Source of the DNA: Octopus vulgaris
Lineage: Eukaryota
Length of the DNA stretch: 64,000 nt
Direction: 5' to 3'
Assembly: GCA_951406725.2 (NCBI GenBank)
Contig: OX597817.1
Location: 12,524,001 to 12,588,000 of the forward strand
In this document: positions 48,697-64,000 of the stretch, one piece after another
How the letters are laid out: each line of letters begins with the position of its first letter
Position numbering within the stretch: the stretch's first letter is position 1
The notes under the pieces: generated by a model
What the model was told of the DNA's origin: nothing
What the model saw: the letters and a program-made list of their open reading frames with translations, nothing else
Databases searched by the model: none
Made by a program: the position numbers and the translations under genes

Positions 48697-51600
48697 CCCC
48701 TTATTCTTACTGCAAGTCTCTTGTCGTTTGAACGTTTTGCCAGTGTTTCCTGTGTCATTTGTTGAATTGTATTGTTGTGGTGAGATGAGGTTGTTTTGCG
48801 GTTGTTTTTGTTTAAAAAACTGTTTATTGCTTCGTTGAAGCAGATTGTTTTCAATTCCACCCTGTGGGGGAATTATTATTGAACTGTAAGTCTTTGAGCT
48901 AATTCTGTGGGGCGTAAGCCCAAATTCTTCTGTGTTTGGCAATTTGCCGTAAATTGTGTAAAAACAACATCATGGAGTCACCATTGAGTTCAGTGGAGTC
49001 GCCGGGTCGACTAATTATTGATATGCCTGTTTTTGTAACAGGTGAAGAGAAAAAAATCACCGGCGGTGACGCCAAAAAAGTTAAACTTTGCCGAGGCAGC
49101 ATGAAAGGAGAGAAACATTAACACGGAGAAAAGTAACTTTAAAAAGTTTATGTCTATATTAAAAAAGGAGGGGACGGAAATACAAGTAGCTCCTCCAACA
49201 GAAACAACCGAGCAAGCAAATAGAAAAAGAATTATCTACAAAACTTACAACGTCGAGAAGAAACGAATAGATAAAACTGAGGAAAATTTTATTGAAAAAT
49301 GCCTCAAGCCGATATGGTCGGATATAACATACATGACTAGAGGCAAACGATTTGGAACGGTCGAGGTGAGGTTTATATCAGAGGAGGTGGCCAAGCGGCA
49401 CTCTTCAGAAACTTTGAGAACCGAGGAGGTGGTTATTCTTCCCATATATATGGGAAGAAGAACATCGAAAATAAAAATTACTAATATTCCTCCGGGAGTA
49501 GATGCTGCTTGGCTATTGGCGGCGATAATAATGGACCATTTTCCAGGCCACAGTAGTGGAGGAAGTGAATTGGAGGGGACAATTCGAAAACAGGTATATC
49601 AATAATTAGTCAACCCGGCGACTCCACTGAACTCAATGGTGACTCCATGATGCTGTTTTTACACAATTTACGGCAAATGCTTGAACATGTTAATTCAAGC
49701 AGAAGTCTCCACGCTGGAAGAAATTCCAGAAATAATAAACATCGGAGAGGAGAGGCTTATTGTCTTCGTGGAATGCAGGAAGCCTAAATGCTTTAACTGC
49801 GGGTTAAAGGGCCATATAAGTTCCGAATGCAAACCCGCAAAAAAGGGCAGGAAGAAAAGGTAAGAGAAGAAACAACAGTGGAAGCATCACCTACATCAGC
49901 AGAGATGACACCAACACCATCAAAACAAGAGGAAGATAGCGACGATAAAGAAAAAGAGAAGGGGTGGTCGACTGTTTTTAAAAAAAAGAAGAAGAAAGGA
50001 AACACAGACTGCCCTTACCAAACTGAAAAACAAAAGGATAAAAACGAAAAAGAAAAAGATGGTGCCCCAGCATGGCCACAGCTCATTAGCTGAAACTGGA
50101 AAAATCAAAATCAAAAAAATATGGCCTTTAAGGTATCGAACAACAGACTGATTAACCGTTAGGCAGCTAATTCATCTACCAAACTGGTAGAAAAAACTTC
50201 ATCAAAAGACTTTCTTATTTACAGGATAGGCCGGAAGGATTACAGACGGATTAAGTCTGAATTTTTTCATGACGTGGGTCCTCTTAGGATGGTCTATTCT
50301 ACATACATTTACAAGGGTCTATGTAAAAAGAAAACCCACGAGCCCGAGAGAAAGAAAAAGAGGAGGAAGGTGAATCCTCCTCGAACCACTGACGCGGGGT
50401 AAGTCATGTTTAGCATTCATGAAGGTTGTATAAATGTGCGTGGCTTGGTGTCAAGCTGGAAGCAAGGTCGCTTCCTTAATGAGATCAGGTCACGTAATTT
50501 GGATGTTATTGTTGCTACAGAAACCCGGTTAAGAGGGCCAAGAGATCTGTCCCCCCTGTTGGATGGTTACGAGCTGTCCTTTTAGCGGAATCAGGGTATT
50601 GGTCCTATTTAAAAGAAACCGGTCAATGACTTGACGTTCAGTCGTGGTAAGATTATCAGACTTGTTGCAATTTATGCACTCACGACAACTGGGCAAAGTG
50701 ATTATTTTCGGAATCTGGAGAAGTTTCTTGGTACATCACATTCTTTAGTTGTGCTAGGAGACTATAACACAATCTGCGACGCACGCATAGACTATGTTGG
50801 CTCGTGTACAGATAGAAAAGTTAATCCTTGCTTCCAGGAACTGCTAAGCCGCTTTGAGCTGGTTGGAATTTCCGAATGCTCCATTGTGGACATGGTTAAG
50901 CAGCGACGGTTCTTCCAGGTCGTACTTAGAGTGTTAATTAGAAAAGCAGATAGAAATATAGCTAAGTGTCCACAGTTTCACTCGGTCAGCTACAGTGATC
51001 ATAAAATGGTCACCTGTAAGCTTGACATAGATAAGCTATATAATAGAGATCCCGGCAACTAGAAATTTAATAGGTTCCTTTAGGCGATTAAGGCGTACAG
51101 AGACCGGATTAAGTTGTTGATTCAGAGGGCATTACCGATTCCATTATTAATAATAAATGGTGGTATGCCCTCAAGCGAGCCATTAAATTTGAGTCTATTA
51201 GACATAGCATAGGTTTAGTGGCTAGAGAGGCTAGGAGGGAATCAGCTTTAGTTAAGGACTTAGAGCAAGCCATGTTAACTGGCTCTGCGGCTCAGGTGAA
51301 GGCCAAGAGACTGGCGTTAAACCAGCACCACGAAGCCAAACAAATGGGTTGCATTGTCAGGGATGGGCTTCATGCAGTGGATTGTGAGGAATTCAAGGCC
51401 TCGGGATGGGTCCGAGTGGTGGAAGCTCTAGGTGGTGATAATGTCACAATCCGATCTTTGACGAACCAATGAGGTAGGTTGATAGACGAACCCGAGGTGA
51501 TGTGTGAGGCTTTCAGGAGCACTTCACCCAGCTTTTCGTAGGGAGCGGCGGACCGGATAGTAGGAGGGACTTAACGGGCTTCCTCGCCGGGCTGCCGCGT

Positions 51601-52388
51601 CTCTCGGGGCGGGACGCGGAGTGCTGTGAAGGGCTGATCACGCCGAGGAGGTAATTGAGGCTATGGCAGACTGCGGCGCGGGTAAGGCGCCAGGACTGGA
51701 TGGTCTACCCTATGAGTTGTATAAGAGTATGCCAGATTTTTTCGGGCACCTGCAGGCGAATGTCTACGCGAACTGGCAGCAGAACGAGTTTATTTCCAGA
51801 TCTGTGCGCCGGGGAGTGATGACGCTTGTCAGAAAACTACCGGACAAGAGGGATTCCGTTGATAATCTTCAGCCCATCACTCTGCTAAACGCAGAGTTAA
51901 AGATTTTGGCCAAAGGATTGTCGAAAAGATTGGTGCGTGTCGCGGATGGTTTGATCGGGGAGGCACAGACATATGCCGTTCCCAGCAGAACCGTCCAGAA
52001 TAATCTCCATCTTATACGGTACACTTTAGAGGGATTTAATAGTGATTCTGGCAAGGGTGGGACACTGGTCCATTTAGACCAATCAAAGGCTTTTGATAGG
52101 GCTAACCATCGGTACCTGGTGTCCGTTCAGGCGCAGTTCGGCCTGGGTCATGACTTCCTCAGGTACATCATTCAGATTCATGACAACGTCGACTCGGTAA
52201 TTCGGGTGAACGCTTTCTTATCGAAGCTTTTCAACATCAAACGCTCGGTTCGTCAAGGGTATCCGCTCTCCCCGCTTTTGTATGTAATGGCTCTTGAGCC
52301 ATTACTGCGAAAATTGAGCGGCATCCCGAGACAGCCAGGTTGTGGAAAGTCAGTTTCAGCTTACGCGGATGACATCACCATCATCTAA
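48697..52388 (+). mobile_element. Decayed Tx1/L1-clade LINE (5' UTR, ORF1, APE and RT; 3' truncated)
   Basis: ORF1 from ATG 48972 with CFNCGLKGHISSEC knuckle. ORF2 from about 50406 with INVRGL, VVLGDYN and SDH (APE), then KAPGLDG, PITLLNAELKILAK, LDQSKAFDR, VRQGYPLSPLLY and SAYADD (RT). Many stops and frameshifts. Confidence 0.92.
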
Positions 52389-58326: not shown

Positions 58327-58640
58327 CGCGTAGCTTATTGGTTAGGGTATTCGGCTCATGATCGTAAAGTCGTTAGTTCTATTCCCGGCGACGCGTTGTG
58401 TTCTTGAGCAAGACACTTTATTTCACGTTCCTCCAGTGCACTCAGCTGACAAAAATGAGTAGTACTTGTATTTTTCAAAGGACCAGCCTCGTCATTTTCT
58501 ATATTATGCTGGATCCCACTGAGGTCTATATTAGGAGTATGCATGTTTGTGGAGTGCTCAACCACATTAATTTCACGAGCAGGCCGTTCCGTTGGTAAGA
58601 TTAGCTGGAGCATTCATCGTCGCAACTGATGGAGTGTCAG
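58323..58640 (+). mobile_element. Old chimeric SINE: family D head plus family C tail
   Basis: D head up to aaaatgagta, then gtacttgtatttttcaaagg...ggagtgctca...ttcacgagcagg of family C. Confidence 0.75.
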
Positions 58641-59086
58641 TATTTATGTATGAGTGTGTGTTGCAGTGGTTATGCTCGATTTTGTCCCCCACTGCCACTT
58701 AACAACCGCTGTTGGTTTGTTTAGATCCTTGTAAATCAGCGGCTAGCCAAAAGAGAGACCGATAGGTACAAGACTTAAAATACGAGTGCTGAGGTCGATT
58801 TGTTCGACTAAAACCCTTCTAGGGGTTTTCCCAGCATGACCGTAGTCCATCGATTGAACCAATTAAAACAAAAAAGATACAGAATATGAAATTTTCGAAC
58901 AATGTGTCGCATGAAATTCTGTAATATGAGTTCCCCTGAACACGGATCTGGACGGCAGAAGACGGAATTAATTAAAATGGCACCAAATATATTAACTTAT
59001 ATGTTTTTTATAAACACTTGAGAGTTCACTTTTACCGACGCACATGACCCTGCTAACCCTTTCTTTTACTCTCAGAAGCTACGTGC

Positions 59087-59126
<40 letters not shown>

Positions 59127-59857
59127 TTCTGCAAGCGCGCCTGTATGAGTGTATGTGTATGTGCATGCGCGTATGCGAAAATCTGTGTAGTCGGATGTAA
59201 GGTATATGCAACACACACACACACACATGTTTATATATAGGCATATATATATATATATATATATATATAAGTACGAGTTTACGTACTTATGTTTGTGTGT
59301 ACACATATAAGCGAATGTGAGCGTATAAGTGCATCAGAGCCGGATTAAGACGTGTAAAGGAAATTAAAAGATTTTGGTGCCTCTATACATCCTCTTTACT
59401 CTTTTACTCTTTTACTTGTTTCAGTCATTTGACTGCGGCCATGCTGGAGCACCGCCTTTAGTCGAGCAAATCGACCCCGGGGCTTATTCTTTTTGTAAGC
59501 CCAGTACTTATTCTATCGGTCTCTTTTGCCGAACCGCTAAGTGACGGGGACGTAAACACACCAGCATCGGTTGTCAAGCAATGCTTGGCGGACAAACACA
59601 GACACACAAACACACACATGCATATATATATATACGACAGGCTTCTTTCAGTTTCCGTCTACCATATCCACTCACAAGGCATTGGTCGGCCCGGGGCTAT
59701 AGCAGAAGACACTTGCCCAAGATGCCACGCAGTGGGACTGAAACCGGAACCATGTGGTTGGTTAGCAAGCTACTTACCACACAGCCACTCCTGCGCCTAT
59801 ATATTACATATATATGTAATTTAAAATACAAACAATAACAACCTTAAAATAAGTTCA

Positions 59858-60294
59858 TTATTTACATTATTTACAATTGACGGATATTTGTCCCAATCTT
59901 GTTTGTTGTTAACATAACTTTTCGGCTATTATACCCTCCAGCCTTCATCAGGTGTCTTGGGGAAATTTCAAACCTGGGTTCTCTTTCCTCGGGTATTTTT
60001 CGATGCCCGTGGGCATATTGCGTAGTAATTAAGAGCGCGGGCTACTAACCCCAAGATTCCGAGTTCGATTCTAGGCAGTGACCTGAATAATAATAATAAT
60101 AATAACAACAACAACAACAACATCGAAAAATACTTTAGGAACGAGAACCCAGGTTCGAGATTTCCCCAAGACACCTGATGACGGCTGGAGGGTATATCAG
60201 CTGAAATGTTGTGTTGACAACAAACAAGATGAGAACAAATATCCGTCAAATGTAAATAATGTAAATAATTCCTCATCTCTTGAATATAGAACTG
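59858..60294 (+). mobile_element. tRNA-head plus hammerhead-tail element with upstream inverted arm
   Basis: tRNA-like head 60011-60085 (tgcgtagt A-box-like, gagttcgattc B box), then (aat/aac)n and a tail 60121-60294. 59858-60005 is the reverse complement of 60121-60269. Confidence 0.75.
60170..60215 (+). ncRNA. Minimal type-I hammerhead ribozyme motif
   Basis: gacac-CTGATGA-c-ggctg-gagggtatat-cagct-GAAA-tGTT-gtgtt, with stems I and II pairing. An inverted sister motif lies at 59911-59956(-). Confidence 0.65.
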
Positions 60295-61953
60295 CATAAA
60301 ATAAGTCTTTAATTTTCAAAATAAAGCAAAACTAATAATAAGATGGAAAATTATTTTTATTTTTATATACTTCCACTTTATTTGCATTTGATAAGTTTTC
60401 TCCCACTTTTACTCGCAAAGTTTTTGAACAGACCCTCACCATGAACACTTCGAAATTATATTTCCGATCATATAAACCGCTTCGAATATTATTTTATCGA
60501 GTTTAAAGGGATTTCTTTTGTGCTGTAGACCATTTACAATTTCTGCGGTGTCCCCTAAGCACGTACTTATTTTGCTTAAAGGTTAATCCAGCACTGAGTT
60601 GCATATATGTGAGTGTAAAAAGAAGCACGTATATGTATGGATGGATTTAGCATTTAGTTGGGAGATAATAAAAGGACAGCACAGAGTTACAAAAATGTGA
60701 CGTACTTAGACAAGCCAACACTCGCGAATAAGCTACAAGCAAACTCGACTCCTAAGCACGCGCGTATACATATCCCCATCCATAAATCGTACGTGCGAAC
60801 GTATGCCAATACACAATTCATCGAGGTACATATGGAAGCACTCCGTCGGTTACGACGATGAGCACTCCGTCGGTTACGACGAATCAACGGAACAGACTGC
60901 TCGTGAAATTAACGTGTAAGTGGCTGAGCACGCCACAGACACGTGCACCCTTAACGTAGTTCTCGGGGATAATCAGCGTGACACAGAGAGTGACAAGGTC
61001 GGCCCCTTGAAATACATGTACAACAGAAACAGGAAGTAAGAGTGAGAGAAAGTTGTGGTGAAAGAGTACAGCAGGGATCACCACCATCCCCTGCCGGAGC
61101 CTCGTGGAGCTTTAGGTGTTTTCGCTCAATAAACACTCACAACGCCCGGTCTGGGAATCGAAACCGCGATTCTATGACCGCGAGCCCGCTGCCCTAACCA
61201 CTGGGTCATTGCGCCTCCACTCGAGGTACATATACAGACTGAAACAAAACAAAAAGAAATTGAAACCCCAATGAAACACACATACACCCACACACTAGTA
61301 ATCACACAATCTCTCTATCACACAGATTCCAAAAAGTTTAAATCTACTCGCAAAACACACTACAGCCATTATAGATACATCATCTAAGATCTGTAGCAAA
61401 GGGAACACGTCGTTGATGTCGTCTTGGGGGGAAAACGAATGAACTCTAACACACTAATAAACAGATATGGTTGATTAGACGATTGTTCAAGCACTCGGTT
61501 AGTTAACTCATTAATTAGTTCAATTAACAGTTAAAAATAACGAAGAAGAAAATAGAATCAATGCGTAAGACTTAGTTAACAGAATGGCCTTCTCAAGACA
61601 CAGCAACATCTGTTTCAGCTCACGATTTCACATCAAGAATGTTGCAAAATAAATACGAAGACGAAATATATACGTTACATACTCACATATATACTAGCAT
61701 TCACACACACACACAACCATATATGTGAATATATATACGTGTGCGCGTGTGTGTGAGCATATATATGTGTGTGTACGTGTGTGTGTTGTATGTGTGAGTG
61801 TGTACATATATATGTATGTGTGTGTGTGCGTGCATGTCTATACATTCATGATATATATATGCATATTTATGTATGAATGTACATATGTATGTATGCATGC
61901 ATGTATGTATGCATGTATGTATGTATGTATGTATGTATTATGTATGTACGCAC

Positions 61954-61984
<31 letters not shown>

Positions 61985-64000
61985 TGTATGTATGTATGTA
62001 TGTGTGTCAATGTCTGCATGTGTGTGCTAATTCAGTTTGTAAACTGGGACTTCAGCTAGACTCTTTATTTTACTGAGAAACAAAGAACGTTGATTGACCC
62101 AATTTTGTGAAAATAACAACATACGTGACACAACCCACTCCTATTCACAAATGACATCACCCCTTCTGTCTTCTTAACTGTCCACACATGCAACTTTCTA
62201 TACACAACCTATTTATTTGATTAGAAACCTTGAAAACGTTTTCCAGTTTAGTTTTTTTTTTGAAAAGCTCGATGACACAGTCGTTGCATATGTCAAAGTA
62301 ACAGCCACAATTTAAAAGCACTTCTTCTTTACATATGAACAACTCAAAACTGAAAACTGCTACTAGTGGTAGGCCAGAGAAGATAGATAGTGTCCATTGG
62401 TCAGAGATAGTACAAACCTATTCGGTTTTGCGAAGTTTTTGATAGTTCCTGCATAGAGAAGCAGCTGTGAATTGGGACCTCTAACGAATCATCAACTAAT
62501 CCACTGCTCAGCATAATGTTACCGATTGAAAACGCTTGTATTAGTGAATGCCTGTTGAAACCTCATCCAGCCGGCGCCAGCCCGACAACCAGGGCGCTCG
62601 GCCGACGGTGCTGCACGCTTTGCGGCTCTACGATCGACAAGATGTCCTCATCTTTGTTGTTAGCACGTTTCGGCTGGTGTAGCCTCCAGTCGTCATGTTC
62701 ATATGATAGTGAATGGATGATAACAAAGTTTCGCGCTTTGGCGACCACTGTATATTCAATGTCACATCCAAACGGGCAAGACTATGTATAAAGGCGATGA
62801 GTAGACAAAACGAACACTGACAATAATACATTTGGATGAACGGGGGAAGCTTTTTTTGGAAGGGAGGCTGAGGAAGGACCCTAACTTTTTCGCGAAAAGT
62901 TTTCAAATTATCTGAAAACTCAAAAGATCGCAGAACAAATTGATAATGTTAACTGATATTAAAAACAAGTTAAAATGTAATACTAATAGATCGAAAATAT
63001 TGTATAAATGTTCGATCATTAAATAGTAACAGTTGATGACATTTTTATACTCATTAATCATTGTCCAATAAAAAATGAATTCGAAAGAGGAGTTGAATGC
63101 AGAAGGGTTTTTTTTCTTCTTAAAACCGAATGTTGATAATCTTAATACCTATTTCTTTATTACCCACAAGGGGCTAAACACAGAGGGGACAAACAAGGAC
63201 AGACATAGGTATCAAGTCGATTACATCGACCCCAGTGCGTAACTTGTACCTAATTTATCGACCCCGAAAGGATGAAAGGCAAAGTCGACCTCGGCGGAAT
63301 TTGAACTCACAACGTAACGCAGACGAAATACCGCTAAGCATTTCGCCCGGCATGCTAACGGTTCTGCCAGCTCGCCGCCTTATAATCTTAATACCATTTC
63401 GCAGAGTAGCATTTATATCGAACCCTTCGATACATAGAGCCAAATTTTTTCCTTGTTTTGTGTTGATAACTCTTTATTTAATTTAGTTTAGTTCAGCTTA
63501 GTTTAGTCTAGTTTAGTTTAGGTACTAAAATAATCCTCAAAAGAATATGAAGTTTCTGGAACCACGGGTAAAACTTTAACTACAGTTCTAACGATGTAGC
63601 GAATATCACAAAAATTAATCACAACAATTGTTCAACAGTTCCTTGGACAAGGTCGTGAATATTTTGGCTCTGATTTGTATTGTGTGGGTGGACCCAAATG
63701 CAGCTCTATTTTAAAATGATGGCAAGATTATCAACACATTCACCTCCAAGAAAAAAAAGACCTTGTCTATTCTCGTGTCTTGTTTTTTTCATCTCAAATT
63801 TCTGCCCGAAAACTTGAACATTGCCCAAAATAGAGAGGTGCATTTCCCAGCCCACTACGTTGTGCGCCGATGGTAGAACAATGACGTGAAATATAAGAAA
63901 AAATAAGAGACAATGTAAATAAGAAGCATAAAGTAGAACAAGTTTGACTGGTACAGAAAGAATGGAAATTGTATCCTTATTTGTTTACAACCAGCAGGCA

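Follow-up and report, generated by a model that had tools for sequence, protein, structure and literature searches.

A Penelope-like retrotransposon family in octopus whose terminal repeat opens with a tRNA-derived, promoter-like segment

The 64,000-nucleotide stretch of Octopus vulgaris DNA analysed here (hereafter the window; contig OX597817.1, positions 12,524,001 to 12,588,000) contains the truncated, inverted end of a common protein-coding Penelope-type element. On balance, we interpret this locus as one Penelope-like retrotransposon insertion made of two head-to-head copies of the terminal repeat, in which the repeat starts with a tRNA-derived segment that likely acts as an internal (Pol III-type) promoter. 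That the repeat is the pseudo-LTR of a coding element is nearly certain, and the copy in the window is a real, decayed member of an abundant Penelope-like family. Its ribozyme and its inversion are ordinary. The unusual feature is a promoter-like head, derived from a tRNA, lying where the RNA apparently starts.

Every part of the locus, namely a head, an AAT/AAC linker, a 174-nt tail and an inverted arm, was confirmed in the window. The unit is enclosed by a 10-bp direct repeat, absent from the initial annotation, whose left copy (59845–59854) is identical to its right copy (60297–60306); we take these to be target-site duplications (TSDs). Next to the left copy lies the inverted arm (59857–60005, minus strand), which corresponds to tail bases 1–149 and so to a short 3' end. 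A small palindrome (60003–60016), of a junction type seen in many copies, spans the point of inversion and overlaps the start of the tRNA-derived head. The head itself (60011–60082, plus strand) forms the 5' end of the pseudo-LTR, with an A box at 60018–60028 and a B box at 60063–60071, and is followed on the same strand by an (AAT)n(AAC)n linker (60086–60120) that varies in length and in other copies is often broken by insertions. The tail (60121–60294) runs to the long 3' end and comprises the end of the 5' UTR and the first ~51 codons of the Penelope ORF, with ACG at the position of the start codon (60141–60143) in this copy. The initial annotation had read a ~175-nt tail with a hammerhead and, upstream of the head, a ~148-bp inverted copy with its own CTGATGA/GAAA core; both are there, and the two arms (59857–60005 and 60121–60269, 149 nt each) are 89% complementary. 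It was also right that the base after GAAA is T in one local arm and A in the other and that both arms are decayed, the core in the inverted arm starting at 59951.

Other repeats lie nearby. Sequences resembling tRNA-derived SINEs flank the locus at 59405–59790 and 60850–61200, with parts inverted at 58563–58812. At 62643–62696 (minus strand) a degenerate hammerhead/tail fragment (75%) is joined to an unrelated GC-rich repeat that recurs elsewhere in the genome; we considered it as a sister family and rejected it as a family fragment beside an unrelated repeat. Further away, at 49105–52388 (plus strand), is a decayed LINE with ORF1-like, endonuclease-like and RT frames (RVT_1, E 8.8e-19), which we take to be L1/Tx1-like.

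The tail contains a minimal type-I hammerhead inside the ORF (60170–60215, plus strand), identified from its sequence, from column counts across the family and from relatives. It reads GACAC-CTGATGA-N-stem II-GAAA-N-GTT-GTGTT, with stem I at 60170–60174/60211–60215, the CTGATGA core at 60175–60181 followed by one extra base, stem II at 60183–60187/60198–60202, GAAA at 60203–60206 and a predicted cut after 60210. The motif matches the minimal hammerhead described in PMC4209133, where opposite-strand pairs are described as well. Across 163 family copies that were not picked by the motif, GAAA is followed by C in 82% and by T, at a CpG site, in 11%, and the family motif includes the core, the extra base after A9, a G-C closing pair and a palindromic ACGU. 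The lone subfamily variant within the core sits at the free N7 position; the column counts show that the family keeps CUGANGA/GAAAC, in line with the ribozyme proposed in the initial annotation. The same architecture was found in 20 of 40 related loci, these being the members of a set of 80 from metagenome contigs that had at least 300 nt after the ORF end (the other 40 were dropped). Rfam hammerhead models, applied at gathering thresholds to the window and in E-value mode to 59500–60600 and to a better-preserved locus (L036), gave no match; energy folding of a natural copy as monomer and dimer did not give the active fold, and RNA-seq reads showed no peak of ends at the predicted cut site. 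Judged by its sequence, the hammerhead is a minimal ribozyme of the usual Penelope kind, expected to cleave only when dimeric or when a protein assists. In vitro, the Poseidon element inserts without hammerhead cleavage, and cleavage required protein (PMC11167929); by analogy, cleavage is probably dispensable for insertion here too.

What links this repeat to a coding element is its position in other copies. GIY-YIG-like codons stand directly upstream of the head at some loci, walking further upstream gave RT, thumb and endonuclease sequence, and with an endonuclease query the head lay directly 3' of GIY-YIG sequence in 24 of 30 loci. Single natural copies are ordered RT-EN-stop-UTR-head-tail. 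The head-linker-tail unit also precedes and overlaps the start of the RT + GIY-YIG ORF: near-unit-length copies carry the tail at their 5' end too, in frame into the ORF, and in two copies (L151 and the internally deleted L047) the 5' repeat begins at the head itself. Parts of the direct 5' repeat were seen at ten loci (L151–L155, L260, L268, L272, L281 and L286), where the pseudo-LTRs are partial tandems containing the ORF start. The unit therefore runs head, linker, ATG, hammerhead, RT, GIY-YIG, stop, short UTR, head, over about 2.8 kb, and the N-terminus of the ORF is encoded by the tail. Since head, linker and tail both follow the stop and lie over the start of a Penelope ORF, we identify them as the pseudo-LTR of an autonomous Penelope-like element. 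One locus (L152), in which endonuclease sequence is joined upstream of the 5' tail, counts against our overall reading, in which the repeat starts with a promoter-like head.

The protein confirms the affiliation. In a column-majority sequence, which we used as a yardstick, the frame stays open for 836 codons and includes the hammerhead, near codon 12 of the aligned part. The family protein gave an RVT_1 match (E 2.4e-10), its RT and C-terminal region align at full length to proteins of Penelope-like elements (PLEs), and it is 37% identical over 569 aa to a PLE protein of Anolis carolinensis, probably the Poseidon of PMC11167929. It is 55% identical to an unnamed 847-aa PLE protein that also shares the N-terminal peptide coded by the hammerhead (12 of 17 residues; P0001 residues 18–34), so that the overlap of ribozyme and ORF is conserved at 55% protein identity. 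The GIY-YIG label comes from sequence motifs and from PF01541 in neighbours; a Pfam search of family fragments gave no direct GIY-YIG match, and by eye the RT-EN linker has no extra Cys motif; an added Zn finger there would be a reason to doubt placement in the Penelope/Poseidon clade as against Neptune and Nematis. Copies differ from the yardstick by 4.5–7.9%, and among those examined none was intact or young and none had an intact ORF. An autonomous Penelope with RT and GIY-YIG that shares the tail, for which the initial annotation had suggested looking, is present in the same genome, and the RVT_1 match and the PLE alignments make the partner RT that of a Penelope rather than a LINE, as had been proposed. 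When the genome was searched twice by protein for a sister PLE family, as an in-genome control, one search returned 30 loci that all belonged to the family described here, and the top-ranking matches of the other lay largely at the same places; no relative was found in viral contigs.

The family is large. In the genome (2.8 Gb, 227 contigs), a 36-nt hammerhead core has 1,827 exact matches (reversed control, 0), and exact 20-mers from the head and from the UTR just upstream of it have 4,372 and 963. Calibrated on copies found by their coding sequence (7/104, 22/80 and 30/82 exact), these counts give very rough totals, for copies about 5% decayed, of 27,000 hammerhead arms, 16,000 heads and 2,600 upstream UTRs. 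Head and tail, which the initial annotation had treated as one unit, are linked at 27 of 29 loci found through the head, at 20 of 29 found through the tail (same strand) and at 24 of 30 in which the head was found by pattern; three of the remaining six pattern-found heads show a tail start or a linker visibly broken by another insertion. LINE sequence often interrupts the linker (L194, L204, L209, L212, L223, L043, L010, L455 and L478), with zf-RVT matches in the insertions of L194 and L223, which lengthens the apparent linker and parts head from tail. These LINEs are presumably R4/Dong, targeting TAA repeats. Twenty sequencing runs under six organism labels contain parts of one copy of the family (0.23–0.64 of its words). 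On the minus strand at G000:C2:2734389-2735213, four tail matches stand in tandem about 220 nt apart, possibly a retrozyme-like array of the family repeat.

The ends of the copies record how they were inserted. Among 408 units, the 3' ends are bimodal: 177 fall at tail position 136–155 and 187 at 167 or more, with 10 in between and 34 shorter, so that the two ends are about 30 nt apart. An inverted arm is present at 58 of 90 loci taken in genome order, and 51 of the 53 classifiable pairs combine one long and one short end (the other five pairs, each with an unclassifiable end, were left out). TSDs of 8 nt or more surround 55 of 97 inverted pairs, against about 1 in permutations, which indicates that each pair is one insertion. 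Rare non-CpG variants are common to both arms in 42 cases, against 9.8 expected (maximum 21), pointing to one template or to later conversion. Hammerhead, inversion, paired 3' ends and TSDs are already known Penelope traits: the inverted pLTR, the tail, junction palindromes and TSDs are described in PMC3846280 and PMC8557442. With Poseidon in vitro, both strands are cut at ATT, RT starts at two internal sites that define a 30–40-nt tail, and the template must include the first 172 nt of the ORF (PMC11167929).

By extension from the Poseidon reactions (PMC11167929), we propose that the protein makes a nick in each strand of AT-rich DNA, some 12 nt from one another, and that RT is primed at two internal sites of the RNA, tail ~143–149 and ~174, one per DNA end. 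The RNA itself would start at about −7 to +1 of the head. From an RT start within the 5' repeat, nothing but the tail, linker and head would be copied before the enzyme runs off the end of the RNA, which would leave the abundant SINE-like copies of ~270–300 nt, while a start in the 3' repeat would copy coding sequence until the enzyme falls off, leaving coding copies of declining length. The two cDNAs would be joined head to head, often via a small palindrome. With internal RT starts the RNA would need no defined 3' end, and a ragged one would be harmless. Starts in the 5' repeat would also explain the six-fold excess of heads without a separate SINE, which fits the absence of short-only lineages.

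The initial annotation had called the head tRNA-like, and its A and B boxes at tRNA spacing bear out a tRNA origin. With the A box beginning at base 8 and the B box at base 53, the head retains the geometry of a tRNA, and in an alignment free of internal gaps 43 of its 72 bases agree with a host tRNA-Arg(TCG), against 28.4 ± 1.7 (maximum 34) for 300 shuffles, in a comparison with only 25 distinct host tRNAs. In a weight matrix for the two boxes, the window copy, with three changes in its A box, scores 13.8 bits, the best family copies reach 25.8, seven of 18 family copies score at least 19, and host tRNAs lie at 24–36. The stems of the head are decayed and no longer form the cloverleaf of a tRNA gene; ARAGORN found no tRNA in the window (0 genes), and neither the window nor the heads of L036 matched RF00005. 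An Rfam match to MIR2606 was rejected, as it merely reflects the inverted repeat. In the 40 related loci, A/B-box pairs reach at most 11.4 bits; for shuffled sequences the 95th percentile is 12.4 and the maximum 19.9. The tRNA head is thus the unusual part of the element, absent from these loci of other organisms. At one octopus locus (L192, oriented position ~1403), another SINE-like head switches into the family head at a look-alike position, a single case and a possible template switch.

The 5' ends of copies pile up at the start of the head. We scored 54 copies, having dropped 36 of the 90 loci for want of a scorable same-strand head, several of them owing to LINEs in the linker. Of these, 39 reach +5, and 29 of the 39 stop at −19 to +5; of the 10 that run past this point, only two end within the following 130 nt. 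The pile-up is significant relative to the preceding 25 nt (Fisher p 1.3e-6), and in a second, partly overlapping set 22 of 23 5' ends lie at the head start. Most ends at −12 to −17 are palindromic junctions, which carry the alignment too far. We consider it likely that the element RNA starts at the head. The pile-up is stronger in copies with an adjacent inversion (22 of 25) than in those without (7 of 14), so fold-back at the palindrome may contribute.

Pol III transcripts end at four or more T. The sense strand of the element has no TTTT in 2,621 columns, against 31 runs of four A (P 0.058, 0.029 and 0.0034 under three nulls, the first not significant), a test made on one master sequence, in which GGGG is absent too (1.0 expected). 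In related PLEs TTTT is not avoided (45 ORF stretches, with 380 runs where 322 would be expected; two of 43 as low as 0.25), nor is it overall in 11 other retro-ORF stretches of the same genome (27 against 24.3); stretches of R4/Dong-like LINEs are mildly depleted (8 against 13.5). A Pol III promoter would account both for a start 8–15 nt before the A box and for the missing TTTT, and we lean towards the view that the start at the head is driven by Pol III. Only tentatively do we extend this to the whole coding RNA. Autonomous elements are argued to need Pol II (PMC10886601), and an uncapped 2.8-kb Pol III RNA must still be translated; both points count against a Pol III transcript of full length. 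The scenario in which an autonomous coding Penelope captured a tRNA promoter, came to be transcribed by Pol III end to end and purged TTTT terminators from its 2.5-kb ORF is, accordingly, a possibility that we put forward with reserve. One transcript would then act as mRNA and also, as a template, give rise to tens of thousands of SINE-like copies, uniting LINE and SINE in one molecule.

The head could instead be a passenger: either an old tRNA-SINE or a retrocopied tRNA, tailed with AAT, came to lie in the UTR of an element with an ordinary internal Pol II promoter, and 5' ends gather at the repeat start or at the fold-back palindrome. PLE promoters have been located in the pLTR (PMC6765202), and rotifer PLEs have Pol II-type motifs as well as palindromes at the 5' end of the repeat without any tRNA (PMC3846280); the weaker pile-up without inversion would fit as well, and intact boxes with decayed stems are expected of any SINE head. 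RNA-seq also showed no start peak. In three raw runs under a related organism label, the strands were near-equal, with no spot where many molecules begin or end, and reads on L085 followed the genomic copy profile (depth changes in a step where the head starts, and loose ends occur at either 3' end), with no start of their own; standard libraries of this kind would miss short RNAs. No RNA record was listed as containing the L188 stretch. However, the pile-up lies within a few bases of tRNA base 1, non-inverted and unit-length copies included, and TTTT is avoided in the octopus family and not in related PLEs. We therefore regard a passenger head as rather unlikely.

Less probable still is the reading in which the short copies form a genuine SINE-like family of their own, non-autonomous, whose solo repeats Pol III transcribes and which the Penelope protein mobilises in trans, with the coding element on another promoter. 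Heads do outnumber upstream UTRs about six-fold (by the rough calibration above), head-tail tandems exist (L247), the sharing of rare variants between arms could point to numerous source loci, and schistosomes offer a precedent in their Pol III/hammerhead SINE-like repeats (PMC6765202). Nevertheless, no variant sets the short copies apart: variant sharing among short copies exceeds that between short and long ones by 0.011, with a permutation SD of 0.019 (100 short, 56 long), and both subfamily alleles are present in both classes. Two variants enriched in long copies may reflect a query drawn from that subfamily. Furthermore, the anole template needed 172 nt of ORF (PMC11167929) and solo copies end at ORF base ~154, so they may lack required sequence. 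The separate SINE family borrowing a Penelope RT that the initial annotation had put forward is thus not supported, as the same unit is the terminal repeat of the coding element and no short-only lineage was seen.

With EN+ elements of Penelope/Poseidon type, such as Poseidon of Anolis carolinensis (PMC11167929) and, in Adineta vaga, Pen2/Pen3 (PMC3846280), the octopus family shares a single ORF with RT plus GIY-YIG at its C-terminus, a pLTR that includes the ORF start, a hammerhead at that start, an optional ~30-nt tail, an inverted 5'-truncated copy, a palindromic junction, TSDs of 8–15 bp and AT-rich targets. Unlike them, its pLTR opens with a tRNA-derived A/B-box segment and an AAT linker, and its sense strand lacks TTTT, traits absent from the passages on those elements as well as from the 40 loci and 45 ORF stretches of relatives. 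TRIMp3 elements (Cassandra, Helenus and Ajax) likewise have a Pol III promoter derived from a small RNA inside the terminal repeat, proposed to stem from a SINE insertion, but they are non-coding LTR elements of 311–1,263 bp, whereas the octopus repeat belongs to a coding Penelope of about 2.8 kb (PMC10886601). Schistosome Sm-alpha/Sj-alpha repeats also place a Pol III-type promoter before a hammerhead in a short repeat; they are tandem and non-coding, with hammerheads that cleave in vitro (PMC6765202), in contrast to the minimal PLE hammerhead in coding frame and the mostly single or head-to-head copies found here. Animal non-LTR retrozymes are, similarly, short hammerhead units from PLE pLTRs, arranged, unlike the octopus family, in tandem arrays (bioRxiv 10.64898/2026.07.22.740005); the main text of that report has no occurrence of tRNA, promoter or octopus. 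The parts of PMC13282606 in which Penelope families are counted have no occurrence of ribozyme or hammerhead, and neither a Penelope with a tRNA-derived pLTR nor this octopus family is described in the sections covered of the literature searched (including PMC8967140 and PMC3531059). The family sequence may well be deposited in Repbase or Dfam under a SINE or Penelope label. TRNA-derived SINEs of octopus were reportedly described by Ohshima and Okada in 1994.

Pol III promoters in mobile elements have been described for short non-coding elements, whose autonomous partners are said to require Pol II (PMC10886601). A coding retrotransposon on a tRNA promoter, if real, would run counter to that rule, and one would have to ask how RNA without a cap is translated. 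Such an element would further provide a route from Penelope elements to SINE-like repeats that needs no separate SINE, and automatic annotation probably labels the short copies as SINEs. Should Pol III play no part, the family still maps Penelope insertion in vivo, with two RT starts, one per DNA end, TSDs of about 12 bp and arms that come from one template.
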